The position numbers were made by a program, and so were the translations under genes. A stretch of 64,000 nt of DNA from Anaerolineae bacterium. GTDB taxonomy: Bacteria; Chloroflexota; Anaerolineae; B4-G1; DUEL01. The notes under the pieces are model-generated. The model was not told where the DNA came from. It was given only the letters and a program-made list of their open reading frames with translations, and did no database searches. Location: positions 3,880 to 67,879 of the forward strand of contig DAOTYX010000184.1 in the NCBI GenBank assembly GCA_034434635.1, in the 5' to 3' direction. Below, one piece after another: positions 1,563 through 43,432 of this stretch. Each line of letters starts with the position of its first letter. The stretch's first letter is position 1.

Positions 1563-2561
1563 GTGATGTTGCGAGCGGATCGCGTCAAAGAGGCTCACAC
1601 GAAGATCGTACCACCCTTCTCCCTCGATGAGAGTATGACGTTTTTCTGCCCGCAGGAGAACCTGGAAGCGCTGGAGCATCCCCGCGTGCGCGCATTTCAG
1701 GAGTATCTGCTTAACGAATATCAGCCTCCGCTGCACGGAAAACGGGCGGTGATGCTGCTCCTGCCGTGCACCAAGACCAAGCCCTATATCCTGAGCGCGG
1801 AGCATCAGGCGATCAACGGCTTTCTGCTGGCGCAGGGGTTCGGTCCCCTGGAGGAGGCGCAGGTACCCGCGGGACTGGCCGAGGCGCTGCCGGCGTGGGC
1901 CGATCCCCGGCTGCTCAACAACGGCATCTGGGCGCGGGGCGATCTGTTGTTGCATCGCTTCGTTGTCTCCGAGCCGATGGCTCTGGTGCCCTATGAGCTG
2001 ATCTACACCTTCCAGGGCGGGGTCTCGCCGGCCAGCCAATATGACGACCCGGGCCTGTTCGAGCATCGCGGCACGGCGGTCTGTCCCTGGCGGGCTGACT
2101 ACACGGGCATCCCGGCCGCCGACGGTTACCGTTGGGGAGATCGGGAGAAGGCGGCCTACGTGGAGGTGCACAACCGGTTGGTGCGCATCATCGTGGCCTT
2201 GTTGGATCGCTTCGGTGACGCCTACGTGGCGCGGCTGGCCTATGTCAGCCCCGGCCTCACCCATCGCAGTTTCCTGACCAGCGTCGAGGAGAAGCGGCGG
2301 GCAGGACTCCCGCTGGGCCGACGCACGACAGCGGGCTTGCTGCGCCTGGAGGGGGTCAATGACCTGCGGCCGGGCCGGGTGCGCGTTATCCCCGACGAGG
2401 TGGAGATTGAGAAGATCCTCACCCGTCTGGGCAGGCGCATGCCCGGCGCCAGTTCGCGCCAGGTGCGTGGCTTCTTCGCCACTGGCGGCGGCGGGGCAAC
2501 CCCCTTGATCCTTCCGGAGACGCTGGAGGTCCTGCGCGAGCACCTGCTGGACTGGTGTTGA
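1563..2561 (+). CDS. DUF5591-like protein (ArcS C-terminal-domain-like; contains PC-x3-K-x-Y-x2-S motif)
   Basis: 332-aa ORF with LLLPCTKTKPYILS, resembling the conserved PCx3KYx2S motif of the archaeosine-synthase C-terminal/DUF5591 domain. Assigned from the motif only. Confidence 0.35.
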   Translation: MMLRADRVKEAHTKIVPPFSLDESMTFFCPQENLEALEHPRVRAFQEYLLNEYQPPLHGKRAVMLLLPCTKTKPYILSAEHQAINGFLLAQGFGPLEEAQVPAGLAEALPAWADPRLLNNGIWARGDLLLHRFVVSEPMALVPYELIYTFQGGVSPASQYDDPGLFEHRGTAVCPWRADYTGIPAADGYRWGDREKAAYVEVHNRLVRIIVALLDRFGDAYVARLAYVSPGLTHRSFLTSVEEKRRAGLPLGRRTTAGLLRLEGVNDLRPGRVRVIPDEVEIEKILTRLGRRMPGASSRQVRGFFATGGGGATPLILPETLEVLREHLLDWC

Positions 2562-2565
2562 ATCT

Positions 2566-2616
2566 CTTTTTTTGGAACCCTTTGGTATACAATATAATAT
2601 ATGAAAGAGAGGAACG
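2566..2616 (+). promoter_or_regulatory. AT-rich promoter island upstream of the first operon (TTGGAA ... TATAAT / TATAATATA, then GAGAGGAAC RBS)
   Basis: Only AT-rich stretch in about 20 kb. -35-like TTGGAA at 2572-2577, TATAAT at 2593-2598. Shares GTATA-CAAT-TATAATATA segments with the island at 21440-21500. Confidence 0.5.
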
Positions 2617-3849
2617 ATGGACGAAGCAACCCGGCAGGCCTATATCCAGATGGATCGCCGGTACATCTGCCGCACCACCCCCTTCCCCAAAGACATGGTC
2701 ATCGCTGAGTCGCACGGCTGCACCATCACCACCGTAGACGGACAGGAATACCTCGATCTGCTGGCCGGCATCGCCGTCTGCAATGTCGGTCACCGCAACC
2801 CTGAAGTGGTGGAGGCGGTCAAAGCGCAACTGGACCGCTCCATGCACGTGATGGTCTTCAGCAAGTTCATCATCCCGATCCAGGTCGACGCCGCGCGGCT
2901 GCTGGCCGAGGTCACCCCGCCAGGTCTGGAGACCACCTTCTTCACCAACAGCGGCTGTGAGGGGATCGAGGGGGCACTGAAGACGGCGCGCAAGTACACC
3001 GGACGCAGCCGCATCATCTCCTGCCAGCGCGCCTTCCACGGCCGGACCTTCGGCGCCCTCTCGGTGACCTGGCGCGAGACCTACCGCAAGCCCTTCGAGC
3101 CGCTCGTGCCCGACGTGCATTTCATCCCCTTCAACGACCTGGAGGCGGCCCGTGCGGCGATTGACGACCGCACCGCCGCGATCATCCTGGAGCCGGTACA
3201 GGGGGAGGGCGGGGTGCGCATCCCCGATGACGACTACCTGCCGGGCCTGCGGCAGATCTGTGACCAGACCGGGGCGCTGATGATCCTGGATGAAGTGCAG
3301 ACCGGCTTTGGGCGCACCGGGCGTTGGTTCGGCTGCGACCACTGGGGGGTGAGCCCCGACATCATGGTGCTGGCCAAGGCGCTCGGCGGCGGCATGCCCC
3401 TCGGCGCCTTCATCGGCCGGCCGGAGGTGATGGACACGCTGTGCGACCCCATGCTCTCCCACCTCACCACCTTCGGCGGTCACCCGGTCTGCTGTGCGGC
3501 GGCAGTGGCGGCGATCCGCTTCATGCAGCAGGAGGACCTCCCTGCACGCGCCGCGGAACGGGGGGGGCAGTTCATGGCCGGCCTGCGCCTGATGCAAGAA
3601 CGATACCCCGCGGTGATCAAAGAGGTGCGCGGCCTGGGGCTGATGATCGGCATCGAACTGCACAGTCGAGAGGTGATGGCCCGCTTCGTGGACGAGGTGC
3701 ACCGCCAGCATCTGATCATCGGCGACTCGATCAACGACGACCTCACCGCCCGTCTGGAGCCGCCGCTGACCATCACCCCGCAGGAGGTGGACGAGGCGCT
3801 CTCTCGCCTCGAGGCTGCCTGCCGGGCTACTGCACAGATGAAACCATGA
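2617..3849 (+). CDS. Class-III PLP aminotransferase (acetylornithine/omega-amino-acid aminotransferase family), paralog A
   Basis: 410 aa; Gly-rich PLP region, [11 protein letters not shown] motif, LAKALGGG (Schiff-base Lys region). Paralog of 28327..29547. Confidence 0.9.
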   Translation: MDEATRQAYIQMDRRYICRTTPFPKDMVIAESHGCTITTVDGQEYLDLLAGIAVCNVGHRNPEVVEAVKAQLDRSMHVMVFSKFIIPIQVDAARLLAEVTPPGLETTFFTNSGCEGIEGALKTARKYTGRSRIISCQRAFHGRTFGALSVTWRETYRKPFEPLVPDVHFIPFNDLEAARAAIDDRTAAIILEPVQGEGGVRIPDDDYLPGLRQICDQTGALMILDEVQTGFGRTGRWFGCDHWGVSPDIMVLAKALGGGMPLGAFIGRPEVMDTLCDPMLSHLTTFGGHPVCCAAAVAAIRFMQQEDLPARAAERGGQFMAGLRLMQERYPAVIKEVRGLGLMIGIELHSREVMARFVDEVHRQHLIIGDSINDDLTARLEPPLTITPQEVDEALSRLEAACRATAQMKP

Positions 3850-4322
3850 CTCCCCCGATGACCTTCCAGGTCCTCGCCAGCAGAGATGGGGAGGACAGAA
3901 CTTGGAGGCGGCAGATGTATCTCGTCCGGGAACACGAGGTGACCGGCGATCGCATGGACCCGCCCTACGCACGGGTGGTCAAGCACCTGGTGGCGGCGTG
4001 GAACGCCGGTGCAACCCATCTCTGGTTGGGTGTCTCGGTCATTGACCCGCTCAGCAGTTCGAACCTTCATGTCCACGAGGGTCAGGAGGAGGTCTTCTAC
4101 TGCCTGAGCGGCCGGGGGCGCATCCGCGTGGGTGACGAAGAGGCTTCCTTCGAGCCCGGCTGTTGCGTCTTCGTGCCTCCCGGGGTGGCACACCAGCTGA
4201 TCAATACCCAGAGTGACGAGGTGCTGCGCGTCCTCTCGGCGACTGCCCCCCCCTTCAGCCGTGAAGGCTGGTCCAACGTTCATGCCGCCGGTGGCGCGGA
4301 TGAAACGGTCCGAAAGGAGTAG
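3846..4322 (+). CDS. Cupin-domain protein
   Basis: ATG overlaps the upstream stop (ATGA). 159 aa with two-His cupin motifs (HVHEGQEEVFYCLSGRG...PPGVAHQ). Confidence 0.7.
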   Translation: MTPPMTFQVLASRDGEDRTWRRQMYLVREHEVTGDRMDPPYARVVKHLVAAWNAGATHLWLGVSVIDPLSSSNLHVHEGQEEVFYCLSGRGRIRVGDEEASFEPGCCVFVPPGVAHQLINTQSDEVLRVLSATAPPFSREGWSNVHAAGGADETVRKE

Positions 4323-4326
4323 AGAC

Positions 4327-6267
4327 ATGCGCGATGGTCGAGCAGTGGCGTTCACGCCGATCCTGATCGGCGGCATGACGGTGAAGAACCGTCTGGTGGC
4401 GGCGCCGATGGTGATGAACCACGCGACGGAGGATGGGCACGTCACTCCCCGGATGCTGGACTACTACGCCGCCAAGGCGGCCGGTGGCTACGGCCTGGTG
4501 CAGGTCGAAGCCTCCTACATCCGCCCCGATGGCCGGATGTTCGGGCGCATGCTGGGCATCTATGATGACCGGCAGATCCCGGGCCTGAGTGAACTGGTGG
4601 AGGCGATCCACCAGCAGGGGGCCAGATGCACGATTCAACTGGTGCACGGGGGACGGGTGGCCGCCCGCCGCTTCACTGGCGTGCAACCTGTCGCCCCTTC
4701 CGATGAGACGCCGCCGCTGAGCGAGAAGCCCCGTGGCCTGCGGGTGGACGAGATCGCCGCGCTGGTGCAGTGCTGGGTGGAGGCCGCCTTGCGTGCCCAG
4801 GCGGCTGGCTTCGATGGGGTGATGATCCACGGTGCCCACGGCTTCCTGCTCTCCCAGTTTGTCTCCCCGTACTGCAATCGCCGCACCGACGAGTATGGCC
4901 GCGATCGCTACCTGATCGTCAAGCAGGTGGTGCAGGCTGTGCGGCAGGCGGTGGGTCCCGACTACCCCATCCTCTACCGTGTCAGCGCTGACGAGTTTCT
5001 GGGGGATGCCGGCCTGACCATTGACGAGACGGCCAATGTGTACGCGCCGCTCCTGGAAAGCCTGGGCGTGGACTGCATTGACGTCTCCGCTGGGATCCAG
5101 GAGCGGGTCTTCTACAACATCCAGCCGCTCTACTCCCCCCGCGCGGCCATCCTCCACCTGGCCCAGCAGGTGCGTCAGAAGGTCACCATCCCGGTCATCG
5201 GTGTGGGACGGATCAACGACCCGCGGCTGATCGAGCATATCTTCGCGACCGACAAGGTGGATATGGTGTCCCTGGGGCGCCAGAGCCTGGCTGACCCCGA
5301 CCTGCCCAACAAGATGCGCGCCGGACGGTATGACGACGTGCGCCGATGCATTGCCTGTGACATTGGCTGCTCCTACCGCCACATCGTGCAGTGGGTGGCT
5401 GACTGCGCGATCAACTACGAGGTGACCCGCGAGCCGCAGTTCCGCCAGATGATGGAGCGAGCGACGAGCCCCAAGAAGGTCGTTGTCGTTGGCGGTGGGC
5501 CGGCCGGGTTGGAGGCGGCCCGCCTGGCAGCGCTCAAGGGGCACACCGTCACGCTCTACGAGAAGAACGAGACGCCCGGTGGGCTGCTCAACCTGGTCTC
5601 ACGCATGCCGCGGGTGTACATGGCCGAATTGCACAACATCGTCGAGTGGGAGATGCACGCGCTCGGCGCGCTGCCGGTGGAGGTGCGTTTGGGCGTGGAG
5701 GCGACGCCGGACATGCTGCGCGAAGTTCCGCCCGATGTGATTATCCTGGCCATGGGCGCGCGCATGCGCCGCCTCGACCTGCCCGGTGCGGACGATCCGC
5801 GAGTGATCAGCCTGCTGGATTATCTGCGGGATGGGGAGCACGTGGGAGAAAGAGTGGTGGTGATCGGCGGCCATGAGGGAGCAGAGGCGGCGCTCTCTTT
5901 GGCCCGCACTGGCCACAAGGTGGTCCTGCTCGAGGCGGATGACCACATCGCCGATGCGCCTTACCTCAAGTACGTTGGCCGTCAGATGTTGCTCAGGAAC
6001 ATGCTCTCCGAGGAAGGCATTGCGGTGAGCACCGGCGCGAAAGTGGTGGCAATTCGGGATGAAGGGGTGGTAGTGCGGACGGATGGCCGTGAAGGGTTGG
6101 TTCCTGCCGATACGGTGGTCGTGGCCCTGGGCCGCGAGGTGGACTCGCTGTCGCTGGCTGCCTGGCAGGGGGCGGCTCCCAAGGTCATCCTTGTCGGCGA
6201 CTGTGCTGAACCGGGAACGGTGCGCAACGCCATCCACACCGCCGCCCGTGCGGCGCTGAGCCTGTAG
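4327..6267 (+). CDS. Old-Yellow-Enzyme-like FMN oxidoreductase fused to an FAD/NAD(P)-binding domain (2,4-dienoyl-CoA-reductase / NADH:flavin oxidoreductase family, with Cys cluster)
   Basis: N-terminal OYE TIM-barrel motifs (VQVEASYIRPDG, HGAHGFLLSQF), CIACDIGC Cys motif, C-terminal VVVVGGGPAGLEAA Rossmann domain. ATG 4327 chosen over the track start at 4213. Confidence 0.85.
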   Translation: MRDGRAVAFTPILIGGMTVKNRLVAAPMVMNHATEDGHVTPRMLDYYAAKAAGGYGLVQVEASYIRPDGRMFGRMLGIYDDRQIPGLSELVEAIHQQGARCTIQLVHGGRVAARRFTGVQPVAPSDETPPLSEKPRGLRVDEIAALVQCWVEAALRAQAAGFDGVMIHGAHGFLLSQFVSPYCNRRTDEYGRDRYLIVKQVVQAVRQAVGPDYPILYRVSADEFLGDAGLTIDETANVYAPLLESLGVDCIDVSAGIQERVFYNIQPLYSPRAAILHLAQQVRQKVTIPVIGVGRINDPRLIEHIFATDKVDMVSLGRQSLADPDLPNKMRAGRYDDVRRCIACDIGCSYRHIVQWVADCAINYEVTREPQFRQMMERATSPKKVVVVGGGPAGLEAARLAALKGHTVTLYEKNETPGGLLNLVSRMPRVYMAELHNIVEWEMHALGALPVEVRLGVEATPDMLREVPPDVIILAMGARMRRLDLPGADDPRVISLLDYLRDGEHVGERVVVIGGHEGAEAALSLARTGHKVVLLEADDHIADAPYLKYVGRQMLLRNMLSEEGIAVSTGAKVVAIRDEGVVVRTDGREGLVPADTVVVALGREVDSLSLAAWQGAAPKVILVGDCAEPGTVRNAIHTAARAALSL

Positions 6268-6283
6268 AATTCAGGAGAGGGAG

Positions 6284-7636
6284 ATGTCCGAGAACAGCGA
6301 GCAACTGCAACGGAAAGCGCGTGAACATGTTATCTTCCCGGCGGTGACGCCGGCTCAGGTGGCCGAACTGGGCCCTATCGTCTTCACCCGCGGGGAGGGC
6401 ATCTACCTGTGGGACGCCGCCGGCAAGCGGTACATGGATTCGATGTCCAGTGGTGTCTACGCGGTGCACATCGGCTACGGGCGGGAGGAAATGGCCCGCG
6501 TGATGTACGATCAGGCGCGGACCATGCATTACTTCTGTCCTTACGGTTACATCTCTCCACCGCCGATCGGCTTCGCCGAGAAACTGGCCCAGTTGCTGCC
6601 CGGCGAGATGCCCTACGTCTTCTTCACCCAGGATGGCAGCGAGGCGGTGGAGTCGGCCTTCAAACTGGCCAGACAGTGGGCTTATCACAAGGGTTATCCG
6701 CGCAAGTACAAGATCATCTCCCGACAGCGCGCCTATCACGGTTCGACCATGGGGGCGCTGGCCGCCACGGGCACGATGGCCCCGTTGCGCCAGATCATGG
6801 AACCCCTGCCGCCTGGCTACTGTTTCGCCCCTCCACCGTATTGCTACCGTTGCCCCTTCGGCCTGAAATACCCCGCCTGCGACGTGCGCTGCGTCGAGGC
6901 GATTCGCCAGATGATCGAGTTCGAGGGCCCCGATTCGGTGGTGGCAGTCATCGGCGAGGTGGTGATGGCCGCTGGCGGCTGTATCGTCCCGCCACCAGAG
7001 TACTGGCCGCGCCTGCGCGACATCTGCTCCCGCTACGGTGTGTTGCTGATTGACGATGAGGTGGTCTGCGGTTTCGGGCGCACTGGCAGGATGTTCGCCA
7101 TCGAGCACTTCGGGGTAGAACCGGACATCGTGGTTATGGCCAAGGGGATCACCTCCGGCTACGCCCCGCTAGGGGCCACCGCCTGTCGGCGCTTCATCGT
7201 CGAGGAGATGCCGGTCTTCATGCACGTTCACACCTACAACAACCACCCTGTCACCACCGCTGTGGGGCTGCGCAATGTGGAGATCATCGAGCGGGAAGGG
7301 CTGGCGCAGAACGCTGCTGAGGTGGGTGACTACCTGCTGGATGGGCTGCGCTCCCTCTCCGGCCACCCCAGCGTGGGGGACGTGCGCGGGTTGGGACTGC
7401 TGACCGCCATCGAGTTCGTGCAGGACAAGGACAGCCGCGCCCGTTTCGACGAGAAGGCGGGCTTCTGCAACCGAATCATGGCTCTGGCGCTGGAGCAGGG
7501 GTTGATCCTGCGCCAGGTGGAGGACATCATCGAGTTCTGCCCGCCGCTGGTGGTCACCCGTAGCGAGGTGGACGAGATGATCCGCATCACCGACGCAGCC
7601 ATCACCCAGGCGGAGCAGGAGTTTGGCCTGCGGTGA
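6284..7636 (+). CDS. Class-III PLP aminotransferase (omega-transaminase / beta-alanine-pyruvate type), paralog B
   Basis: 450 aa; [13 protein letters not shown] motif, MAKGITSG Lys region. Confidence 0.9.
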
Positions 7637-10392: not shown

Positions 10393-10423
10393 GCGCTTAT
10401 CAGATGACGGGAGGTTCTATTCT

Positions 10424-11431: not shown

Positions 11432-11468
11432 AGCAGCCTCATCCTGATTCGAGGGAGAAGAAAACCTG

Positions 11469-16857: not shown

Positions 16858-16864
16858 TCCGAAC

Positions 16865-16897
16865 GAGGTGCGACGCATGACCCATGCGTCGCACCTC
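16865..16897 (+). promoter_or_regulatory. Intra-operonic 15-bp-stem hairpin between the binding-protein gene and the ATPase gene (GACGCAT...ATGCGTC core, related to the REP family)
   Basis: gaggtgcgacgcatg-acc-catgcgtcgcacctc. Typical position for differential-expression hairpins in ABC operons. Confidence 0.5.
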
Positions 16898-35629: not shown

Positions 35630-36147
35630 TCGTGCAGGGACGCGCCTGGAGGCTTGGCGACAACGTGGACACTGACCAGTTGCTGCCAGGCCGCTACCTT
35701 AGCCTGACCGAGCCGGCAGAACTGGCCCGCCACTGCCTGGAGGATGTGCGTCCCGACTTCTGCGTCGGCGTGAAAGCGGGCGATCTCCTGGTGGCTGGCG
35801 AGAACCTGGGCTGCGGCAGTTCGCGGGAGCATGCCCCGTTGGCGCTCAAAACGTTGGGCATCTCATGCCTGGTGGCGGCCTCCTTCGCGCGCATCTTCTT
35901 CCGCAACAGCATCAACCTGGGGCTGCCGGCCCTGACCTGCCCGGAGGCCGTGGCGGGCATCGCCGATGGGGATTTGCTGCGCATTGACCTGGAGAGCGGC
36001 GAGATCGAGAACCTCACCCACCCCGCGCGCTTCCAGGCCCCGCCGCTGCCCGACTTTCTGACCGAGATTATCCGCGCCGGCGGGATGACGGCTTACGTGC
36101 GCGGGGCCCTCGCCCGCCGACAGGCGGACCATCGTCTGGGGAGGTGA
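35626..36147 (+). CDS. Aconitase-family hydro-lyase small subunit (LeuD-like)
   Basis: 173 aa swivel domain; start overlaps the upstream stop. Confidence 0.85.
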   Translation: MIVQGRAWRLGDNVDTDQLLPGRYLSLTEPAELARHCLEDVRPDFCVGVKAGDLLVAGENLGCGSSREHAPLALKTLGISCLVAASFARIFFRNSINLGLPALTCPEAVAGIADGDLLRIDLESGEIENLTHPARFQAPPLPDFLTEIIRAGGMTAYVRGALARRQADHRLGR

Positions 36148-37377: not shown

Positions 37378-38652
37378 GTGACTCGACTACTGGAGCATCA
37401 AGGCAAGGAACTGCTGCGACGATTCAAGATTCCCACGCCAGAGGGACGGATTGTCGGCAGCCTGGAAGAGGCGCACGAGGCTGCCCGGCAGATTGGCTAC
37501 CCTCTGTTGGTCAAGGCCCAGGTCTACACCGGCAAGCGCGGCAAGTCCGGCGGCGTGCGCCCGGCTGAGAATGAGGCGGAACTGGAGACCGCAGTGCGTG
37601 AGATGCTCAGCACGCCCATCCGCGGGCTGCTGGTGGAGAGCCTGCTGATCGAGCAACTCATCCCTCTGCGCCGCGAACTCTACGTCGCTGTCACCGCCGA
37701 TCCCAGCCTGCGCCAGCCGGTGCTGATCTTCTGCGCCAACGGCGGAGTGGACATCGAGGAGACATTTCATGACCGCCCCGAAACGGTGCTGCGGCTGCCG
37801 GTGGACATCCTGCGCGGCGTCTACCTGTACGACGCGCTCAACCTGCTGCGCGACGCACCTGAACTCTCCTCGCGCGACCGGTTGGAGGTGGCGCAGGTTC
37901 TCTGTCGCCTGTACGAACTCTACCGCGCCTGCGACGCGAAACTGGCGGAGATCAACCCGCTGGCGCTGACTGACAACGGCCCGGTGGCGCTCGATGCGCG
38001 GATAGACATTGACGGTGACGCCCTCGGCCGTCACCCCGAACTGAGCCTGGCCCTGGCGGAGGAGGCGGGAGAGCGCCACCCCACGCGCCTGGAGCAGATC
38101 GCCGCGACGATTGACCAGGGCGACCACCGCGGCACGGTGCACTTCGTGCAGATTGACCCCGATCTCTCCTATGCCCGTCAGCACCAGAAGGTGCCCATCG
38201 GCTTCGACTGCGTCGGCGCCGGTGTCAGCCTGACGATGATGGACGAACTGGTGCCGCTGGGCTTCTACCCGGTCAACTTCTGCGACAGTTCCGGCAACCC
38301 TGTGGCTTCGAAACTGTACCGTATTACCCGCGTCATCTTCTCCCAGCCGGGTATCGCTGGCTACGTCTTCGTCTCCTGCGTCTCCAGCCAGCAGCTGGAC
38401 AACACCGCGCGGGGGATCATTAAGGCGTTCAAGGAACTCTTCCCTCAAACTGGTGGGCAGCCGGACATCCCCACTGTGCTGGCCTTCCGTGGGGCATGGG
38501 ATGAGGAGGCCATCCGTCTGTTGGCCGACCACGGCATCAGCGCCGGGCGATGGGTCCGTGTGCTGGGCCGGGAGGCCACAGAACAGGAGGTCGCCGAGAC
38601 CTTCCAGGCGTTGCACAGCGCCTGGGTTGCTGAAAGGGGGGAGGCGGCATGA
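37378..38652 (+). CDS. ADP-forming acyl-CoA ligase beta subunit (SucC-like ATP-grasp)
   Basis: [10 protein letters not shown]...[24 protein letters not shown]-grasp N-terminus. Confidence 0.8.
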
Positions 38653-38933
38653 ACGACGGACGATTGGAATTCGCGGTCCGCTCCGGCGGTACGGTCAGCA
38701 TAACCCTTGAGCGCTGCGTTGATTGTGAGACCAAGGCCTGCATCAAGGTCTGCCAGGCCCAGGGAGGGCCGCTGGTGCTCGATGAGGAGCGAGGGCTGCC
38801 GGCGCTGCGCTGGTCTCTTGAGGAGATCACCCGTGGCGGCTGTGTGGAGTGTCTGGGCTGCGAGTTGGACTGTGAACTCTACGGTCGGCAGGCGGTGAAG
38901 ATCACCCTGCCGCTGGCGGGGCTGGAGGTGTAG
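38649..38933 (+). CDS. Small 2x[4Fe-4S]-ferredoxin-like protein inserted between the ligase beta and alpha genes
   Basis: 94 aa; [13 protein letters not shown] and [11 protein letters not shown] Cys clusters. Confidence 0.6.
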
Positions 38934-38934
38934 G

Positions 38935-39843
38935 GTGTCCATCCTGGTTGACCAGAACACAAGGGTCGTGGTACAGGGGGCTACCGGTCGCGAGGCCATC
39001 CTGCGCATCCGTCTGATGAAGGAGTACGGCACGAAGGTCGTCGCCGGGGTGACGCCAGGCAAGGGTGGGGAGACGGTCGAGGGGGTGCCGGTTTACAACA
39101 CGGTTTTGGAGGCCCGTGAACATCATCCGGAGATCAACACCGCCACCATCTTCGTGCCGGCGATGGTGGCGAAGGTCGCGGCGCTGGAGGCGCTGGACGC
39201 CGGAATCTCGGTGATCACGCTGCACCCGGAACGGGTGCCACAGCAGGACATGCTGGAGGTGATCGCCTACGCCCGGCGCTGCGGAGGCTACGTCATCGGC
39301 CCCAACACCATCGGCCTGATCAGCCCTGGCAAGGCGCTGGTGGGGATGATCGGCGGTAATGCCACTTCGGCGCGCGAGTTCTTCCGCCCAGGGCCGGTGG
39401 GGATCCTCTCCCGTAGCGGCGGGAACACCACCACGCTGGCCTTCTATATCAACCAGGCAGGGCTGGGACAGACCACAGCCATCGGTATGGGCGGCGATGC
39501 CTTTGTCGGCACGACGCTGCGCGATCTTCTGGCCCTGTTCGAGCAGGACCCGGAGACGCAAATGGTCGCTTTCTTTGGCGAGATCGGCACGAGCATGGAG
39601 GAGGATGCAGCCACCTTCATCCGCGATGGCGGCTTCACAAAACCGATGGTGGCCTATGTCTCCGGCGTCCATGCCCGCCCGGACGTCCGCTTTGGCCATG
39701 CCGGGGCGATGATCAGCCGGGGAGTAGGCTCAGCGCAGGCCAAGCGGGAGGCGCTACGTGCCGCTGGGGTCCATGTGGTGGAGCACTTTGGCGAGATCGG
39801 CCGCGTGGCCCGCGAGATTCTGGGCGGACTGGGCCCGCGATAG
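38935..39843 (+). CDS. Acyl-CoA ligase alpha subunit (SucD-like CoA-binding / His-phosphorylation subunit)
   Basis: CoA-binding N-terminus ([11 protein letters not shown]). GTG start. Confidence 0.85.
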
Positions 39844-39866: not shown

Positions 39867-40814
39867 ATGGAGCCATCATCCACACTCTGGGAGGCGCTTC
39901 TGCCGTCGGCGGTGGAGATCATCGAGGTGGGGCCGCGTGACGGCTTCCAGAACCTGCCCGACTTCATCCCGACGGCGGACAAGGTTCGCATCATCAACGC
40001 GCTTATCCGCGCGGGCATTCGCCGCATGGAGGTGACCTCTTTTGTCCACCCCAAGGCGGTGCCGCAGATGCGCGATGCCGCCGAGGTGCTGCAGGGGATC
40101 ACCCGCAATGGTTGCCAGTGTTTCGCCATGGCCCCTAACCTCAAAGGGGCGGAGCGTGCGATTGAGGCTGGTGCCGACATGCTCAATCTGGTCGTCTCGG
40201 CCAGCGATGCCCACAACCGCAGCAACGTGCGTATGGACGTGGAGGAGTCCCTGGCTGGCTTCCCGCCCGTGCTGGCTCTGGCCAGGGAGGCCGGAGTGCC
40301 GGTACGCGCCAGCATCGCCACGGTCTTCGGCTGCCCCTTTTCTGGGGAGGTACCGCTGACGCGGGTGATCGGGGTGGGTCAGCGGCTGGTGGAGATGGGA
40401 TGTGTCGAGTTGAACCTCTGCGATACGACCGGGATGGCCAATCCTCGCCAGGTGGCCCGCGTGGCCCAGGCGGTGCGGGCGGCTTTCCCCGCCACAAGAC
40501 TGACGATGCACTTTCACAACACCCGAGGCGCAGGCGCCGCTAACCTGCTGGCGGCCTTGCAGAATGGCATCACCTCTTTCGAGGCATCCTTCGGAGGCCT
40601 TGGCGGCTGTCCGTTCGCCCCGGGGGCCACGGGTAACGTCTGCACCGAGGACATGGTGCACATGTTGCACGAGATGGGCATAGCGACAGGAATTGACCTG
40701 CCAGCGCTGCTGGCGGCAGTGCAGGAGGCGGAACCGTTGCTCCACGTGCCACTGAGCGGGCAGGTCATCCGCGCTGGCCGCACCTGTGACCTTCATCCTC
40801 TCCCCACGGCTTGA
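39867..40814 (+). CDS. HMG-CoA-lyase-like DRE-TIM metallolyase (citramalyl-CoA / hydroxymethylglutaryl-CoA lyase family)
   Basis: EVGPRDGFQN...HFHNTRG motifs. Confidence 0.85.
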   Translation: MEPSSTLWEALLPSAVEIIEVGPRDGFQNLPDFIPTADKVRIINALIRAGIRRMEVTSFVHPKAVPQMRDAAEVLQGITRNGCQCFAMAPNLKGAERAIEAGADMLNLVVSASDAHNRSNVRMDVEESLAGFPPVLALAREAGVPVRASIATVFGCPFSGEVPLTRVIGVGQRLVEMGCVELNLCDTTGMANPRQVARVAQAVRAAFPATRLTMHFHNTRGAGAANLLAALQNGITSFEASFGGLGGCPFAPGATGNVCTEDMVHMLHEMGIATGIDLPALLAAVQEAEPLLHVPLSGQVIRAGRTCDLHPLPTA

Positions 40815-40850: not shown

Positions 40851-42206
40851 ATGAGTGTAGGGATGACAGCCACCCGCCTGACGGTGGCCGAGCGGCTCAA
40901 GGGGTTCGACGAGGTGGAGCAGGCTTTCAACCCCACCCAGGCTACCCTTGAGGCCAACCGCTGCCTGCTGTGCGACAACGCTCCCTGTAGCCAGGGTTGT
41001 CCGGCAGGCATTGACGTGCGCGGCTTCATCCGCAAGATCCGCTTCGGCGAGTACCGGGGCGGTGTCCGCTTGCTGCGGGAGGAGAACATCTTCGCCGGCA
41101 CCTGTGGGCGGGTCTGCCCTACCGAGGCGCTGTGCGAGCAGGCCTGCCGTAGCCAGGCGCTGACCGACCCCATCCGTATCGGCGCACTGCAACGTTTTCT
41201 GACCGACTGGGAGATGGCTGTAGGGCGGCGTCCGTTCGATCTGCCCCCAGCAACCCTCAAACCGGTCGCCGTCATCGGTGCCGGGCCGGCCGGGCTCTCC
41301 GCCGCTGCTCTCCTGCGGCAACTGGGCCACCCGGTCACCGTCTTCGAGAAAGAGGGATACGCTGGCGGGGCGTTGGTGAACAGCATTCCTGCCTTCAAAC
41401 TCCCCCGCGCCGTGGTAGACTACGAGGTCGGCCTGGTGCGCGATATGGGGGTGGACATCCGCCTCAATACCCCGGTTGATGAGCAGCGCACGCCGCAGCA
41501 GTTGCTGGAGCAGGGCTTCGGCGCGGTGCTGCTGGCCGTGGGGCTGCAGGAGTCCTACTCACTGGGCATCCCTGGGGAGGAGTTGGAAGGCGTGATCACT
41601 GCCCTCGAGGTGCTGCGGCTGGCCAACGGCCTCACCCCACAGCGACCGGTGCGTATCGGTCGGGACGTGGTGGTCATTGGTGGCGGCAGCGCCTCGATCA
41701 ATGCTGCCTGCGCCGCGCTCCGACTGGGAGCGGAGACCGTGACGGTCACCGCGCTGGGCACCCCGGCGGAGATGGACGCTTTCGAGAAGGACAAGCAGCA
41801 AGGGCTCGAGGAAGGCATCCAGTTCCTCTCCCGTGTGCGCCCCTTCCGCTTCCTGGGAGAGGGCGGCCGTGTAACGGGTGTGGAACTGAGACGTGTGACC
41901 TGGCGGGAACCGGGCCGCTTCACCCCAGATAACGCTGTGGATCTGCCCGCACCGTCGCTGGTATTGCTCGCCGACACTGTGGTCATCGCCATCGGCCAGC
42001 GGCCAGATGAGGGCTTCCGGCGTTGTATCCCCGAATTGCAAGCCGCAGCCAACGGTTGTCTCCTGGTAGATCCGGAGACGAAGGCCACGTCTCTGGAGGG
42101 CATCTTCGCTGCTGGCGACATCCTGGTGGGACGGCACACCGTGGTGCAGTCGGTGGCCGAAGGCAAGGCCGCGGCCCGCGCCATTCACGAGTACCTGAGC
42201 GCGTAG
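40851..42206 (+). CDS. preT: GltD/PreT-family FAD/NAD(P)H oxidoreductase with N-terminal FeS domain (dihydropyrimidine dehydrogenase PreT-like)
   Basis: CLLCDNAPCSQGCP / CGRVCP FeS motifs and VAVIGAGPAGLSAA Rossmann. ATG 40851 after GGAGG. Confidence 0.8.
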   Translation: MSVGMTATRLTVAERLKGFDEVEQAFNPTQATLEANRCLLCDNAPCSQGCPAGIDVRGFIRKIRFGEYRGGVRLLREENIFAGTCGRVCPTEALCEQACRSQALTDPIRIGALQRFLTDWEMAVGRRPFDLPPATLKPVAVIGAGPAGLSAAALLRQLGHPVTVFEKEGYAGGALVNSIPAFKLPRAVVDYEVGLVRDMGVDIRLNTPVDEQRTPQQLLEQGFGAVLLAVGLQESYSLGIPGEELEGVITALEVLRLANGLTPQRPVRIGRDVVVIGGGSASINAACAALRLGAETVTVTALGTPAEMDAFEKDKQQGLEEGIQFLSRVRPFRFLGEGGRVTGVELRRVTWREPGRFTPDNAVDLPAPSLVLLADTVVIAIGQRPDEGFRRCIPELQAAANGCLLVDPETKATSLEGIFAAGDILVGRHTVVQSVAEGKAAARAIHEYLSA

Positions 42207-42217
42207 AGGAGGTAGAC

Positions 42218-43432
42218 ATGTCTCTCTATAAACTACCTGCAGTGGACCTGTCTGTCGAATACGCGGGTCTCCGCTTCGATAGTCCCTTCATCCTGGCCTC
42301 TGCGCCTCCTACCGACACCTACGAGATGGTGCGTGATGCCTTCCGCGCTGGCTGGGCCGGGGCGGTGCTCAAGACGACCTCGATGGAGGACTACGTCGTG
42401 GACATCGCCTACCCTTGCATCGCCGGCGTGCGCCACCAGGGCAGCCTCTTCGGCCTGGGCAACATTGACAACATCTCCGAGTTTCATATGGACAAGATGG
42501 AACAGGCCGTGCGGCTTCTGAAGGAGGAGTTTCCGGAGAAGATCGTGGCCACCAGCATCTGGGGCACCGACAAGGCTTCCTGGCAGATGCTGACCCGTCG
42601 CTCCATCGCTGCGGGGGCGGATTACCTGGAGGTCTCCATGTCCTGCCCCACCGACTCCCCCTTCGAGGGGACGCACCTGATGATCGGTCAGGTGCCGGAT
42701 GAAGCCTACAAGATCGTCCGATGGATCGTCGAGGCGGCGGATGGCCTGCCGGTGGTGCCCAAACTGACGTCGCAGGTCACCGACATCCTCTCCATCACCC
42801 GTGCGGTCAAAGAGGCCGGAGCCGCGGCGTTGACCGCCTGTGACTCGGTGCACGGCATCATCGGCATTGACCTGGAGACCTTCGCCCCGCTGCCGATCAT
42901 CGAGGGCAAGGGCACCTTCGCCGGCATGGTTGGCCCCATCCTCAAGCCGTTCGAACTGCGGGTGCTGGCGACCCTTGGCATGGGACAGGGGCTCAAGGTG
43001 GCTGCCAGCGGTGGCGCGACCACCTGGCAGGATGCCGCCGAGTATATGGCGGCGGGGGCCACGCTGGTGCAGTTCTGCACGGCGGTGATGCTCTATGGCG
43101 TGGGCATCATTGACGACCTGAAAGAAGGCCTGGCCTACTTCCTGGAGTCGAAAGGAATGCGTTCGGCGCAGGAACTGGTGGGGCGGGCACTGCCCAACAT
43201 TGTCCCTCAACCCGACCTGAACCCCATCAAGCATGCGGTGGCCTTCGTGGACCGCGAACGGTGTACTCGTTGTGGTCGGTGTGTGATCTCCTGCCAGGAT
43301 GGCGGTCATCGCGCCTATATCATCACCGCCGACGGCTACCCGGAGGTAGACAAAGACAAGTGCTACGGCTGCGGGCTGTGTCCTGACGTCTGCCCGGCGC
43401 AGTGTATCTCCCTGCTGCCGCGCCAGGTCTGA
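42218..43432 (+). CDS. preA: PreA-like DHOD-fold FMN / 2x[4Fe-4S] subunit (copy 2), partner of PreT
   Basis: DHOD-like barrel plus CTRCGRCVISC / CYGCGLCPDVCP. ATG 42218 after AGGAGG. Confidence 0.8.
   Translation: MSLYKLPAVDLSVEYAGLRFDSPFILASAPPTDTYEMVRDAFRAGWAGAVLKTTSMEDYVVDIAYPCIAGVRHQGSLFGLGNIDNISEFHMDKMEQAVRLLKEEFPEKIVATSIWGTDKASWQMLTRRSIAAGADYLEVSMSCPTDSPFEGTHLMIGQVPDEAYKIVRWIVEAADGLPVVPKLTSQVTDILSITRAVKEAGAAALTACDSVHGIIGIDLETFAPLPIIEGKGTFAGMVGPILKPFELRVLATLGMGQGLKVAASGGATTWQDAAEYMAAGATLVQFCTAVMLYGVGIIDDLKEGLAYFLESKGMRSAQELVGRALPNIVPQPDLNPIKHAVAFVDRERCTRCGRCVISCQDGGHRAYIITADGYPEVDKDKCYGCGLCPDVCPAQCISLLPRQV

Follow-up and report, generated by a model that had tools for sequence, protein, structure and literature searches.

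A conserved 42-kb gene island of an uncultured Anaerolineae bacterium, a candidate fusion of N-heterocycle and organic-acid catabolic modules

Described systems and the extent of the island

The described systems with which the locus is compared here are the nicotinate fermentation of Eubacterium barkeri, the ygeW/xdh/ssnA/ygfT cluster of E. coli, and the anaerobic reductive 2,8-dioxopurine and Pyd routes. In E. barkeri the nicotinate skeleton, of the 2-methylpentane type, reaches 3-methylitaconate only with a B12-dependent 2-methyleneglutarate mutase. Pyridines carry one nitrogen, and ordinary purines and pyrimidines are degraded to C3 and C4 fragments, for which a Mii/DmdAB-type module is not needed. 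C. difficile UacX and clostridial PydA are described as reductases built of PF01180 plus Fe-S clusters, with no FAD domain (bioRxiv 10.1101/2025.05.19.654654).

The window (the whole 64-kb stretch of DNA analysed, 66% GC) comes from an uncultured Anaerolineae bacterium (Chloroflexota) and contains a real, conserved gene island. According to Pfam and NCBIfam scans, positions 1563-43432 of the plus strand form an unbroken train of 33 genes over about 42 kb: 31 long open reading frames, a Cupin_2 gene (3915-4322) inside an apparent 432-bp gap, and a 94-residue ferredoxin-like frame. Neighbouring genes are never more than 90 bp apart, and eight junctions overlap. Within the island no internal terminator-like hairpin stands out, there is no regulator gene, and a riboswitch search found none. 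The boundaries and the promoter-like features are as follows.

1468..1510, plus strand: hairpin at the left boundary, ending the upstream gene (RNA fold dG -40.5 kcal/mol, z -7.2)
2576..2615, plus strand: AT-rich promoter-like island 1, with the 11-mer TATACAATATA at 2586-2596
21447..21481, plus strand: sigma-70-type promoter TTGACA-16-TATAAT, a perfect consensus match, with the 17-bp palindrome ATTGTATAATATACAAT
43631..43657, minus strand: GC hairpin at the right boundary (12-bp stem, T-run), shared with the convergent gene

The promoter at 21447-21474 agrees with the consensus at 12 of 12 positions and is overlapped by the perfect palindrome. It overlaps AT-rich island 2 (21452-21485), where the 11-mer recurs at 21462-21472. 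These two islands are the only stretches in the window with at least 75% A+T per 30 bp, and the 11-mer has no other copy in the 64 kb (0 expected). Its presence in both islands argues for co-regulation, and the modules are probably co-regulated from two promoters; the AOR genes of two relatives (L091 and L089) have an analogous AT-rich promoter/palindrome upstream. An earlier reading of the bare sequence (the sequence-only reading) had described some 33 consecutive plus-strand genes with overlapping junctions and two promoters at 2566 and 21440, and both the gene count and the promoters hold up as real features.

Gene content of the two modules

Judged by their recurrence in other genomes, an N-module (uptake and ring breakdown) and a C-module (organic-acid splitting) each form a putative functional set. 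The N-module has, besides an ArcS-core/DUF5591 protein and the BMP ABC importer, a Mo hydroxylase, two deaminase-type amidohydrolases, class-III aminotransferases, the reductases PreA2 and PreT/PreA, and a tungsten-type AOR; an HDAC-fold and a tandem isochorismatase-like amidase are encoded among these genes.

1563..2561, plus strand: stand-alone ArcS-core (DUF5591) protein, motif PCTKTKPYILSAEH
2617..3849, plus strand: class-III aminotransferase AT3a (Pfam Aminotran_3, 384 bits)
13124..14605, plus strand: amidohydrolase A (AmidoA), ATZ/TRZ/deaminase type (Pfam Amidohydro_1)
14610..15746, plus strand: HDAC-fold amidohydrolase (Pfam Hist_deacetyl, 288 bits)
15802..20456, plus strand: BMP/PnrA-family ABC importer (Pfam)
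15802-16857, plus strand: its BMP lipoprotein (SBP)
16917-18488, plus strand: its double ATPase
About 18485-19540 and 19521-20456, plus strand: its two permeases
21518..23221, plus strand: tungsten-type aldehyde:ferredoxin oxidoreductase (AOR; Pfam AFOR_N and AFOR_C)
23282..24586, plus strand: amidohydrolase B (AmidoB), SsnA-like (NCBIfam SsnA, 208 bits vs cut-off 444)
24586..28287, plus strand: single-polypeptide Mo hydroxylase, FAD - 2x[2Fe-2S] - MoCo domains (Pfam)
28327..29547, plus strand: class-III aminotransferase AT3c, 47% identical paralogue of AT3a
29551..30684, plus strand: tandem isochorismatase-like amidase, RutB/BiuH-like (Pfam, two stretches)
30721..31875, plus strand: PreA2, DHO_dh FMN domain and 2x[4Fe-4S], without FAD partner domain (Pfam)
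40851-42206, plus strand: PreT-like protein (Pfam Fer4_20 and Pyr_redox_2)
42218-43432, plus strand: PreA, dihydropyrimidine-dehydrogenase-type reductase (PreA equivalog, 362 bits vs cut-off 335)

The nearest solved relatives of the importer's binding protein are base-binding members of its family, 7x0r ('Lbp') and AtzT (6pi5). Among solved structures, E. barkeri nicotinate dehydrogenase comes nearest to the Mo domain (3hrd, L 329 and M 154 bits); 4-HBCR follows with 315 bits, and xanthine dehydrogenases score about 239 bits. The hydroxylase is 29-31% identical to E. coli XdhD/XdhA. AmidoA is typed by NCBIfam alone, where its best matches are chlorohydrolase/deaminase families, all below cut-off; AmidoB is 25.5% identical to E. 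coli SsnA, and no enamidase is among its solved-structure matches. The sequence-only reading had counted three amidohydrolases and likened the locus to a cluster with an enamidase-type one. The count is corrected and that part of the likeness weakened: the window has two Amidohydro_1 genes, both of the ATZ/TRZ/SsnA deaminase type. The HDAC-fold protein finds its best PDB matches in HDAC6 and bacterial HDAH. The tandem amidase matches the NCBIfam RutB and BiuH models below cut-off and, in translation, has the residues D-K-C in domain 1 and D-K-D in domain 2. PreA2 is 27% identical to the PreA of the window.

The C-module is made up of a PrpD/CAD-like protein, a LeuCD/DmdAB-like pair, a Mii-like isomerase, SucC-ferredoxin-SucD and an HMGL-like lyase, with a carbamoyltransferase gene inserted among them.

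31902..33290, plus strand: PrpD/MmgE-family protein, first gene of the C-module (NCBIfam and PDB)
33337..34329, plus strand: carbamoyltransferase of a distinct 'AKSWGS' subfamily
34355..36147, plus strand: LeuC/LeuD-like (DmdAB-like) hydro-lyase, large and small subunits (NCBIfam subfamily cut-offs passed)
36149..37318, plus strand: 3-methylitaconate-isomerase-like PrpF-family isomerase
37378-38652, plus strand: SucC-like protein (Pfam/NCBIfam)
38649-38933, plus strand: 94-residue Cys-rich ferredoxin-like frame
38935-39843, plus strand: SucD-like protein (Pfam/NCBIfam)
39867..40814, plus strand: HMG-CoA-lyase-family lyase (NCBIfam HMG-CoA lyase subfamily, 356 bits vs cut-off 246)

The isomerase scores 440 bits against E. 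barkeri Mii (3g7k) at 56% identity (214/379), and 293 bits against PrpF; the LeuD-like protein passes the NCBIfam LeuD/DmdB cut-off (193 vs 109 bits). SucC-Fd-SucD (37378..39843) is predicted to be an ADP-forming acid-CoA ligase into which an Fe-S protein is inserted. For the first gene, PrpD proper was rejected (NCBIfam PrpD models 32-73 bits vs cut-offs 458-950), and its best PDB matches are IDS epimerase (153 bits) and cis-aconitate decarboxylase (136 bits). Aligned to 1pvv, the carbamoyltransferase keeps STRTR, HPxQ and HCLP and has other residues in place of the ornithine motifs DxxxSMG and GDGNNV, a replacement shared by all listed members of the subfamily; it is predicted to be of a non-ornithine type that has lost the ornithine-binding residues. 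In other phyla its relatives adjoin carbamate kinase, and their other neighbours are cyclic amidohydrolases, PreA-like reductases, BMP transporters, M20 and PALP.

The remaining genes form a variable accessory block and a strain-specific insertion.

3915..13115, plus strand: accessory block of seven genes (Pfam/NCBIfam)
3915-4322, plus strand: Cupin_2
4327-6267, plus strand: OYE+FadH-like Fe-S flavoenzyme
6284-7636, plus strand: aminotransferase AT3b
7623-9347, plus strand: IlvD-like dehydratase
9340-10392, plus strand: O-methyltransferase
10424-11431, plus strand: M29/NicX-like protein
11469-13115, plus strand: CrtO-like flavoprotein
20468..21427, plus strand: 3-hydroxyacyl-CoA-dehydrogenase-like gene (Pfam 3HCDH_N/3HCDH)

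The profile annotation bears out the domain calls of the sequence-only reading, whose module list left out the IlvD-like, O-methyltransferase, CrtO-like, 3HCDH-like, cupin, small ferredoxin and DUF5591 proteins. As to its M29/NicX call, the M29 match is below the Pfam cut-off (19 vs 27 bits), and a homologue in L094 carries a Pfam NicX domain.

Conservation and modularity in relatives

At least six further contigs from metagenomes or MAGs carry the fused core, with 64-87% identity (L086, L088, L089, L091, L092, L093, L096). Its order is DUF5591-AT3a-AmidoA-HDAC-BMP ABC-AOR-AmidoB-XDH-AT3c-IsoCh2-(CN hydrolase)-PreA2, followed by PrpD-CTase-LeuCD-Mii-SucC-Fd-SucD-HMGL-(DHPase-like)-PreT/PreA; the CN-hydrolase and DHPase-like genes, carried by relatives, are missing from the window. 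Identities are 80-86% for AT3a (L088/L091), 76% for AmidoA (L088), 64-72% for AOR, 81-87% for AT3c and 81-82% for PreA2, and the HDAC-fold gene is present in L088. The accessory block is missing between AT3a and AmidoA in the two relatives that cover the position (L088, L091), and the 3HCDH gene is missing between permease 2 and AOR in L088, L091 and L089. Every fused copy covering the junction has the carbamoyltransferase gene within the C-module.

The modules also occur apart. In a more distant genome (L103) the N-module families, including DUF5591, recur in shuffled order around the BMP transporter at 46-67% identity (AT3a 57%, AmidoA 49%, AmidoB and PreA2 67%, PreT/PreA 52-59%), flanked by an OYE_FadH homologue (56%) and an AT3b-like gene; the HDAC-fold gene is missing, and there is no C-module within 10 kb. 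The importer is kept in L088, L091 and L103. Conversely, other Anaerolineae (L095, L097, L098) have the C-module by itself, together with a GntR regulator and with no N-module gene beside it except an AOR. The ferredoxin-like frame is kept in every C-module copy (61-80% identity). A PrpD-like gene of 79% identity lies in an unrelated context in L085, and near XDH homologues (30-40% identity) in 80 GTDB species the C-module is never found.

These neighbourhoods suggest that the island is a fusion of an N-module and a separately mobile C-module. The sequence-only reading had proposed a single pathway; a composite with a conserved core is borne out, and because the island is modular one indivisible unit is not. 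Since each module occurs without the other, the fusion could reflect shared regulation or plain synteny instead of a single pathway.

A proposed route, its alternatives and the known systems

On balance we lean towards a composite catabolic island, in which separable N-heterocycle and organic-acid modules are fused and probably co-regulated from the two promoters. The analysis shows which genes are there, where the modules begin and end, how far they are conserved, their motifs and their nearest characterised relatives; from this we infer the reactions, the substrate and the link between the modules. The BMP-type system would import a free N-heterocyclic base, most likely a purine-like bicyclic one, conceivably a 7-deazapurine. 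The N-module would degrade it by the reductive logic of anaerobic purine/pyrimidine catabolism: the Mo hydroxylase would add or remove a ring oxygen adjoining nitrogen, the PreA-type FMN/Fe-S reductases would dearomatise the ring or rings (PreA2 on low-potential electrons, PreT/PreA on NAD(P)H), and the rings would be opened, and their exocyclic amino groups taken off, by the deaminase-type amidohydrolases. Ureido and amide groups would be hydrolysed by the tandem isochorismatase-like amidase, the HDAC-fold enzyme and, in relatives, the CN-hydrolase. The carbamoyltransferase may phosphorolyse a ureido group to carbamoyl phosphate, from which a carbamate kinase encoded elsewhere would yield ATP. 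Freed primary amines would become aldehydes through the class-III aminotransferases, and AOR would oxidise these and pass reduced ferredoxin back to the reductases; the ArcS-core protein might act on a nitrile or amidine substituent.

The C-module would act on an acid of the itaconate/3-methylitaconate type, a branched, unsaturated dicarboxylate with five or six carbons (C5/C6). The PrpD/CAD-like enzyme may make or trim it, the Mii-like isomerase would move its double bond, the DmdAB-like hydro-lyase would hydrate it, SucC-Fd-SucD would activate the hydrated acid, and the HMGL-type lyase would split the product into an acyl-CoA and pyruvate. The place of the carbamoyltransferase gene and the shared 11-mer speak for the linkage; that the C3/C4 fragments of ordinary purines and pyrimidines need no such module counts against this composite. 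The separability of the modules, the carbamate kinase, CN-hydrolase and DHPase-like genes missing from the window, the lack of a regulator gene in the island, the negative riboswitch search and the mostly family-level likeness to characterised pathway enzymes weigh on the same side.

A possible, if unlikely, reading takes the N-half for a variant of the 2,8-dioxopurine and Pyd/PreTA routes, fused by chance to an independent itaconate/citramalate-type operon. The E. coli and C. difficile clusters do combine an XDH-family enzyme with a FAD-less PF01180/Fe-S reductase, an SsnA-like amidohydrolase and a carbamoyltransferase, as the island does; the equivalog cut-off for PreA is passed, and both the extra genes of the relatives (DHPase-like, CN-hydrolase) and the company of the carbamoyltransferase subfamily elsewhere (carbamate kinase, M20, PALP, BMP) fit. 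However, the SsnA, YgeW and D-hydantoinase cut-offs are missed, homologues of YgeX, YgeY and carbamate kinase are absent from the window, and such a variant leaves unexplained the conserved ArcS-core protein, two or three aminotransferases with AOR, and a carbamoyltransferase gene inside the C-module.

More doubtful is mere adjacency, with unrelated operons (base transporter and purine/pyrimidine genes, an organic-acid operon, accessory redox genes) head to tail on one strand and their order kept through shared ancestry alone; long co-directional runs may be common in the lineage. The stand-alone modules, the PrpD-like gene in L085, the XDH neighbourhoods and the strain-specific 9.2 kb and 3HCDH gene favour it. 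Against it are the inserted carbamoyltransferase gene, the 11-mer, the short gaps without a standout terminator, a fused order shared by several contigs, themselves from different samples, whose proteins are about 70-85% identical, and the N-module content kept in L103 despite shuffling.

We think it improbable that nicotinate or a related pyridine carboxylate is fermented B12-independently (Ndh-like hydroxylation, ring reduction by PreA2, hydrolytic opening, and a Mii/DmdAB-like tail in which a CoA-dependent lyase takes the place of dimethylmalate lyase): the Mo domain, Mii, LeuD/DmdB and NicX likenesses point that way, but the island has neither the mutase nor a B12 domain (Pfam), no enamidase is among the solved-structure matches of AmidoB, the binding protein is nearest to base binders, and a ring with one nitrogen would leave the carbamoyltransferase, the three aminotransferases, the ureido-type amidases and the deaminase-type amidohydrolases without a role.

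In membership tests against nicotinate fermentation, 2,8-dioxopurine and Pyd, the island matches none, and no described pathway uses its gene set, as the sequence-only reading had held. The echo of E. barkeri that it noted is also confirmed: an Ndh-like Mo domain, Mii and a LeuD/DmdB-like protein are common to both, and, again as it stated, B12 mutase and an isocitrate-lyase-type lyase are absent here. Its likeness to ygeW/xdh/ssnA/ygfT of E. coli stands at the level of families and not as a closer relation (25-32% identity). PreA2 matches the FAD-less architecture of C. difficile UacX. Mii and PreA apart, all similarities to characterised pathway enzymes are at family level only.

A single-strand gene train and its two probable promoters

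We begin with the island, a train of 33 genes at 1563-43432 of the window, whose G+C content is 66%. In the Pfam and NCBIfam scans every real gene lies on the + strand, as the sequence-only reading had it; its gene list is also essentially right, apart from amidohydrolases counted as three where there are two and several genes missing from its modules. The gaps between genes are all 90 bp or less, eight junctions overlap, and the train lies between two strong hairpins, one at about 1468-1510 and the other at 43631-43657. We call N-module the genes for uptake and nitrogen-ring breakdown, and C-module the organic-acid genes from the PrpD-like protein through the HMG-CoA-lyase-like lyase.

Genes of the island, from Pfam and NCBIfam scans except where brackets give another basis
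1563-2561, +, DUF5591 protein
2617-3849, +, class-III aminotransferase AT3a
3915-4322, +, Cupin_2 protein, 135 aa
4327-6267, +, OYE and FadH-type Fe-S flavoenzyme (OYE/FadH)
6284-7636, +, aminotransferase AT3b
7623-9347, +, IlvD-like dehydratase
9340-10392, +, O-methyltransferase
10424-11431, +, M29/NicX-like protein, weak match
11469-13115, +, CrtO-like flavoprotein
13124-14605, +, amidohydrolase A (AmidoA)
14610-15746, +, HDAC-fold amidohydrolase
15802-20456, +, BMP-family ABC importer
15802-16857, +, binding protein of the BMP importer (lipoprotein leader)
20468-21427, +, 3-hydroxyacyl-CoA-dehydrogenase-like protein (3HCDH)
21518-23221, +, tungsten-type aldehyde:ferredoxin oxidoreductase (AOR)
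23282-24586, +, amidohydrolase B (AmidoB)
24586-28287, +, single-polypeptide FAD-[2Fe-2S]-Mo hydroxylase
28327-29547, +, aminotransferase AT3c
29551-30684, +, tandem isochorismatase-like protein
30721-31875, +, PreA-like FMN/Fe-S reductase PreA2
31902-33290, +, PrpD/MmgE-family protein
33337-34329, +, OTCase-fold carbamoyltransferase
34355-36147, +, LeuC/LeuD-like subunits
36149-37318, +, PrpF-family isomerase
37378-38652, +, SucC-like protein
38649-38933, +, Cys-rich ferredoxin-like ORF, 94 aa (no Pfam match above cut-off)
38935-39843, +, SucD-like protein
39867-40814, +, HMG-CoA-lyase-family protein
40851-42206, +, PreT (Fer4_20 and Pyr_redox_2, Pfam)
42218-43432, +, PreA (PreA equivalog NF006183)

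The Cupin_2 gene (3915-4322) occupies an apparent 432-bp gap between the AT3a and OYE/FadH genes; given this gene, the latter most likely starts at ATG 4327, 3' of an AAGGAG site. Genes for an ECF sigma factor and its zf-HC2/DUF4367 anti-sigma partner (43672-45254, - strand) converge on the island end, and the pair also follows the cluster in contigs of the identical strain. A PALP-family enzyme extended at its N-terminus by a Cys-rich (CxxC...CxxC) stretch (50377-51621, +), which has no BLASTP match to E. coli YgeX at E <= 1e-3, and a 1075-aa AAA-TPR-BTAD regulator (52831-56058, +) do not adjoin the island. The window also holds a tRNA gene (62091-62164, -; Rfam, 67 bits).

Where is the train transcribed from? 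In the whole 64 kb, A+T reaches at least 75% per 30 bp only at 2576-2615 and 21452-21485, the two places proposed as promoters from the sequence. The second tract contains a perfect TTGACA-16-TATAAT with a perfect 17-bp palindrome overlapping it, and both tracts share the 11-mer TATACAATATA, which is absent elsewhere in the window and for which the chance expectation is none. Comparable AT-rich promoter/palindrome tracts lie 5' of the AOR gene in two related loci (L089 and L091). The two tracts are probably promoter-operator sites for one common regulator. No regulator gene is found within the island, and no riboswitch in the window or 7 related loci (Rfam, gathering thresholds).

Conservation and separable modules

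Is this gene order kept elsewhere? The window sequence is found identical in several metagenome assemblies, and its taxon-named homologues at 65-88% identity are mostly from Anaerolineae, Anaerolineales or Chloroflexota metagenome-assembled genomes (MAGs). Among the close homologues that the DUF5591 protein has, two bear the labels Planctomycetaceae and Candidatus Micrarchaeaceae, probably through binning errors; all other named ones are Chloroflexota. With the XDH-family Mo hydroxylase as query, no close relative was found among species-representative genomes: in the scan of 185,579 species genomes the best matches are only 30-40% identical, and their neighbourhoods show only the known sets of XDH with amidohydrolase, carbamoyltransferase and PreT/A, or of XDH with BMP.

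The AOR-anchored metagenome scan gave 6 loci only, a small sample but enough to define a core. Conservation of the neighbourhood, a check suggested by the sequence-only reading, is borne out, since the fused core recurs in L086, L088 (a 268-kb contig), L089, L091, L092, L093 and L096 at 64-87% identity to the window. Its order is DUF5591 protein, AT3a, AmidoA, HDAC-fold protein, BMP ABC importer, AOR, AmidoB, Mo hydroxylase, AT3c, tandem isochorismatase, (CN-hydrolase), PreA2, PrpD-like protein, carbamoyltransferase, LeuCD, isomerase, SucC, ferredoxin, SucD, lyase, (DHPase-like amidohydrolase) and PreT/PreA. The two genes in parentheses have been lost from the window. Relatives whose loci span the positions concerned have neither the 9.2-kb accessory block at 3915-13115 nor the 3HCDH gene; both are insertions in, or variable parts of, the window genome.

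Each module is also found alone. Three other Anaerolineae contigs (L095, L097 and L098) carry a lone C-module in the order GntR, PrpD-like protein, LeuCD, isomerase, SucC, ferredoxin, SucD, lyase and family-III CoA transferase; a divergent AOR is present, the carbamoyltransferase is absent, and an AT-rich promoter/palindrome tract lies 5' of the GntR gene. The AOR, of 628 aa, precedes the module; the GntR promoters have an ATATATG-N5-CATATAT palindrome across the consensus -10, and in 3/3 an MtmB-family methyltransferase and a corrinoid (B12-binding) protein are encoded downstream on the same strand.

The N-module stands without the C-module in L103, a more distant genome, in the order (identity in brackets) AmidoB (67%), PreT (52%), PreA (59%), FeS-Mo hydroxylase (46%), PreA2 (67%), CN-hydrolase, AmidoA (49%), DUF5591 protein (53%), BMP ABC importer (48-54%), aminotransferase, AOR, AT3a (57%) and OYE/FadH (56%). 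Within 10 kb there is no C-module, carbamoyltransferase, HDAC or isochorismatase gene. That the content is kept while the order is shuffled argues well for the N-module, with the DUF5591 gene in it, being a single functional unit; OYE/FadH, a gene of the accessory block that is present here too, travels with it.

PrpD-like genes of 68-79% identity occur in other contexts too (L085, L094). In the second of these (ENA ERZ24794679 NODE_9221), two PrpD-family genes stand with a PrpF-like gene (61% identity to that of the window), PxpABC-like 5-oxoprolinase subunits, an Amdase/maleate-isomerase-family gene, an amidohydrolase, a fumarate-reductase-like flavoprotein, and a NicX-domain gene that matches part of the window M29-like gene at 66% identity; it is possibly another lactam/heterocycle cluster.

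Do the modules form one integrated system? The carbamoyltransferase gene, which lies inside the C-module in all fused copies spanning it, favours this, as do the shared promoter motif, the tight spacing and the conserved fused order. Against it, each module exists alone, and ordinary purines and pyrimidines yield no branched C5/C6 skeleton. We read the island, from gene content and order, as a conserved, composite, undescribed catabolic island of separable modules and not as one indivisible operon. What had been proposed as one N-heterocycle pathway thus stands as composite, undescribed and conserved, but not as a single unit.

Enzymes and their possible working

We now consider the N-module proteins. 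The closest solved relative of the Mo domain is the Eubacterium barkeri nicotinate dehydrogenase (NdhL 329 and NdhM 154 bits, a family-level likeness), against 315 bits for 4-hydroxybenzoyl-CoA reductase (4-HBCR) and about 239 for xanthine dehydrogenases. The residue after GGxFGxK was rejected as a guide to the substrate: the window enzyme has Met where E. coli XdhA and XdhD both have Gln, and the position thus fails to tell substrates apart. The L103 enzyme (3626-6403 of that locus) is without the N-terminal FAD domain that is fused in the window and close relatives, and the electron partner would therefore differ between versions. Both window amidohydrolases (A and B) group as ATZ/TRZ/SsnA deaminase type; AmidoB is 25.5% identical to E. 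coli SsnA, scores 206-208 bits against SsnA models with cut-offs of 444-455, and has no enamidase among its PDB matches at E <= 1e-10. PreA2 combines PF01180 with Fe-S and has no FAD domain, the same architecture as described for UacX; PreT is 30% identical to YgfK, and PreA passes equivalog NF006183 (362 bits, cut-off 335). Among solved structures, the importer's binding protein is nearest to 7x0r "Lbp" and to AtzT, the atrazine periplasmic binding protein. Of the two domains in the tandem isochorismatase-like protein, the first has the Asp-Lys-Cys triad (SNVCAL) and the second has Asp for the Cys nucleophile (TNVDLR); given this Asp, only one half may be catalytic.

The carbamoyltransferase keeps the carbamoyl-phosphate motifs STRTR, HPxQ and HCLP and scores slightly over the TIGR00658 cut-off (295 against 281 bits). 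In the alignment to the Pyrococcus furiosus OTCase 1pvv, however, the ornithine loop DVWASMG (DxxxSMG) is replaced by KSWGSFT and the asparagines of GDGNNV by SPRDKSAGVPQ (SPRxKSxGVPQ), and both replacements recur wherever readable among the 120 relatives listed (51-100% identity). A true ornithine carbamoyltransferase is rejected on these binding-loop residues, and the Asp-to-Lys change suggests an anionic partner. Against YgeW models it scores 123-133 bits (cut-offs 453-500). The neighbours of members in other phyla (L099-L101) are carbamate kinase, a second carbamoyltransferase, cyclic amidohydrolases, PALP/M20 genes, a BMP transporter or a PreA-like reductase; the kinase neighbours point to ATP-yielding cleavage of a ureido acid, and we infer a catabolic, phosphorolytic enzyme for such an acid. 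The window itself has no carbamate kinase. In L101 (GCA_034926405.1, a Clostridiaceae MAG) an 'AKSWGS' carbamoyltransferase adjoins a carbamate kinase, a PreA-like reductase, a DHOase-like amidohydrolase and a 2-oxoacid:ferredoxin oxidoreductase, and a PrpD-family gene lies 6 kb off; the set may encode reductive degradation of pyrimidine type in an ATP-yielding variant.

In the C-module, the isomerase scores 440 bits (56% identity, 214/379 columns) against 3-methylitaconate isomerase (Mii, 3g7k), far above its score against PrpF, and keeps the LTSKLAI lysine and GNCGNIS cysteine, which we take to be the catalytic residues of Mii; on the PrpF equivalog model it reaches 334 bits (cut-off 440.6). 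The LeuD-like protein passes the LeuD/DmdB subfamily model (193 against 109 bits). The PrpD-like protein is closer to iminodisuccinate epimerase and cis-aconitate decarboxylase than to PrpD, on whose models it scores 32-73 bits (cut-offs 458-950). As the PrpD and PrpF equivalog cut-offs are not reached, the 2-methylcitrate cycle is rejected; Pfam finds no citrate-synthase-like (PrpC) or PrpB-like gene in the island. The Cys-rich ORF between the SucC- and SucD-like genes (94-109 aa, 61-80% identity) is present in every C-module copy (window, L086, L095-L098) with two Cys4 motifs, CxxCx4CxxxC and CxxCxxCxxxC; an Fe-S protein within a succinyl-CoA-synthetase-type ligase operon is unusual.

How might the enzymes work together? 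The gene content fits the reductive strategy of anaerobes for aromatic N-heterocycles, recently worked out for uric acid (bioRxiv 10.1101/2025.05.19.654654, 10.1101/2025.04.24.650524). The Mo enzyme would adjust ring oxygenation, a PreA/PydA-type FMN/Fe-S reductase would dearomatise the ring, and ring opening by an amidohydrolase would pull the unfavourable reduction forward. Ureido groups would leave by hydrolysis or through the carbamoyltransferase, and the class-III aminotransferases would turn the freed amines into aldehydes, which AOR would oxidise, regenerating low-potential electrons. In the C-module, an acid of the itaconate/3-methylitaconate type would pass through a CAD/PrpD-family enzyme, Mii, a dimethylmalate dehydratase (DmdAB), a thiokinase and a cleavage of HMG-CoA-lyase type, ending as acyl-CoA and pyruvate. 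Each of these steps has a precedent; we infer all the reactions.

The DUF5591 protein (Pfam DUF5591, 29.8 bits, cut-off 26) raises one specific substrate class. It has the exact ArcS core motif PC-X3-KPY-X2-S-X2-H (documented in PMC10516641 and PMC5699537), kept in 119/120 homologues. The family is tiny (at E <= 0.001, 91 representatives out of 1.84 billion, for the most part fragments), and about 200 residues of the window protein have no structural match. Like phage and viral ArcS2 it is a stand-alone core domain; unlike ArcS, it is without the TGT-like N-domain or PUA domain for tRNA binding, and its gene is bacterial and sits in a catabolic cluster, not a tRNA/DNA modification cluster. The only ArcS-core chemistry known to us is on the preQ0 nitrile.

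It is conceivable, though we think it improbable, that the island is the first catabolic pathway for 7-deazapurine bases, which could be preQ0, preQ1, 7-carboxy-7-deazaguanine or the queuine/archaeosine bases from tRNA and modified DNA. In this scheme the ArcS-core protein, like the relatives' nitrilase-superfamily enzyme, would act on the 7-cyano/amidine group, and aminotransferase and AOR would carry 7-aminomethyl through 7-formyl to 7-carboxy. A deaminase-type amidohydrolase would remove the 2-amino group, the Mo enzyme would hydroxylate C8, two different PreA-type reductases would dearomatise the pyrimidine and pyrrole rings, and amidohydrolases with the carbamoyltransferase would release C2 as carbamoyl phosphate. 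The leftover carbons C4, C5, C6, C7, C8 and +/- C10 would have 2-methylbutane / 2,3-dimethylbutane connectivity, that of itaconate / 3-methylitaconate, and the Mii-like, DmdAB-like, ligase and lyase enzymes would convert this skeleton to acyl-CoA and pyruvate. E. barkeri builds its 3-methylitaconate-type skeleton with a B12 mutase; 7-deazapurine carbons, being already (methyl)itaconate-connected, would explain a Mii orthologue without the mutase. If this doubtful reading held, 7-substituted 7-deazapurines would be one substrate class reconciling all the island evidence. We rate it low because its substrates are scarce, because catabolism of this sort is not known (the literature searched gave no description of 7-deazaguanine catabolism), and because it builds on one conserved domain and the skeleton argument. 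A nicotinate origin is disfavoured, since the branched skeleton would need the B12 mutase that the island does not have, and a pyridine substrate would leave many nitrogen-processing enzymes unneeded.

Reductive breakdown of an imported nitrogen heterocycle, the reading that we prefer, has wider bearing: Anaerolineae are abundant in sediments and digesters, largely uncultured, and their substrates are mostly guessed from genomes. A conserved 35-42 kb island given over to such an imported compound is a concrete, testable candidate for a new anaerobic catabolic route. Entries for enzymology are the carbamoyltransferase subfamily without ornithine-binding residues, the stand-alone ArcS-core protein inside a catabolic operon, and the Mii and DmdAB-like tail that, without B12 mutase, ends in thiokinase and HMG-CoA-lyase-type cleavage. 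As for method, comparison with relatives splits "superclusters" into mobile modules.

Comparison with known pathways

Literature on the module, Anaerolineae purine clusters, methylitaconate, PDB 7x0r and AF0587 gave no description of the present system, and we compare it with four known ones. With the E. barkeri nicotinate cluster (NdhFSLM, Hnr, Ena, Hgd, Hmd, MgmL, Mii, DmdAB, Dml) the island shares a Mo hydroxylase that among solved structures is nearest to NdhL/M, the isomerase 56% identical to Mii, a LeuCD/DmdAB-type hydro-lyase, and the logic of hydroxylating, reducing and hydrolysing before a branched dicarboxylate is taken to pyruvate and a C2/C3 unit. It differs in having no B12-binding or mutase domain in the 33 genes (domain scans), no isocitrate-lyase-family gene of Dml type in the island (Pfam), no serine-dehydratase-type Hmd, and no enamidase type among the AmidoB PDB matches; it ends in an ADP-forming CoA ligase with an inserted ferredoxin, then an HMG-CoA-lyase-family lyase, and adds many nitrogen-processing enzymes and the BMP transporter. 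The nicotinate-fermentation echo heard in the sequence holds for Mii, the Mo-domain likeness and the missing mutase and isocitrate-lyase type, but not, as far as the AmidoB matches go, for the enamidase type.

The reductive uric-acid / 2,8-dioxopurine pathway uses E. coli XdhD-YgfM, YgfK, SsnA, HyuA, YgeW, YgeY, YgeX and YqeA, and C. difficile UacX and UacY (bioRxiv 10.1101/2025.05.19.654654, 10.1101/2025.04.24.650524). Likenesses are an XDH-family enzyme whose FAD domain is YgfM-like, a PF01180/Fe-S reductase that has no FAD, ring opening by an SsnA-like amidohydrolase, a carbamoyltransferase to cleave ureido groups by phosphorolysis, and an anaerobic, ferredoxin-linked logic. The island proteins are, however, only 25-32% identical to the E. 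coli ones and fall below the family cut-offs, HyuA, YgeY, YgeX and YqeA of E. coli have no matches among the cluster proteins, amines would go to class-III aminotransferases and AOR and not to a PLP lyase, and the carbamoyltransferase subfamily is distinct from YgeW. Orthology to the E. coli ygeW-ygfT cluster is rejected, and the echo of ygeW/xdh/ssnA/ygfT proposed earlier falls back to family level.

The Pyd/PreTA pathway shares the PreT/PreA pair, with PreA over its equivalog cut-off; the relatives add a DHPase-like cyclic amidohydrolase (187 bits, cut-off 393) and a CN-hydrolase (81 bits, against 410 for AguB), and the class-III aminotransferases could serve as beta-alanine aminotransferase. 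Neither dihydropyrimidinase nor beta-ureidopropionase is in the window, and the island holds far more genes than that pathway needs.

Itaconate/citramalate catabolism (Ict-Ich-Ccl) likewise takes a branched C5-dicarboxylate through 2-alkylmalyl-CoA to acetyl-CoA and pyruvate with an HMGL-family lyase, and the lone C-modules have a family-III CoA transferase beside the lyase; the Chloroflexus R-citramalyl-CoA lyase is presumably of the HMG-CoA-lyase family too, with such a transferase adjacent. That route hydrates the CoA ester with a MaoC hydratase, whereas the island would hydrate the free acid with a LeuCD-type Fe-S hydro-lyase after PrpF-type isomerisation, activate it with a SucCD-type ligase, and begin its module with a PrpD/CAD-like enzyme. 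From its genes, then, the island belongs to none of the three echoed pathways (nicotinate fermentation, uric-acid, reductive pyrimidine), and its kind would be reductive N-heterocycle catabolism with a nicotinate-fermentation-type tail.
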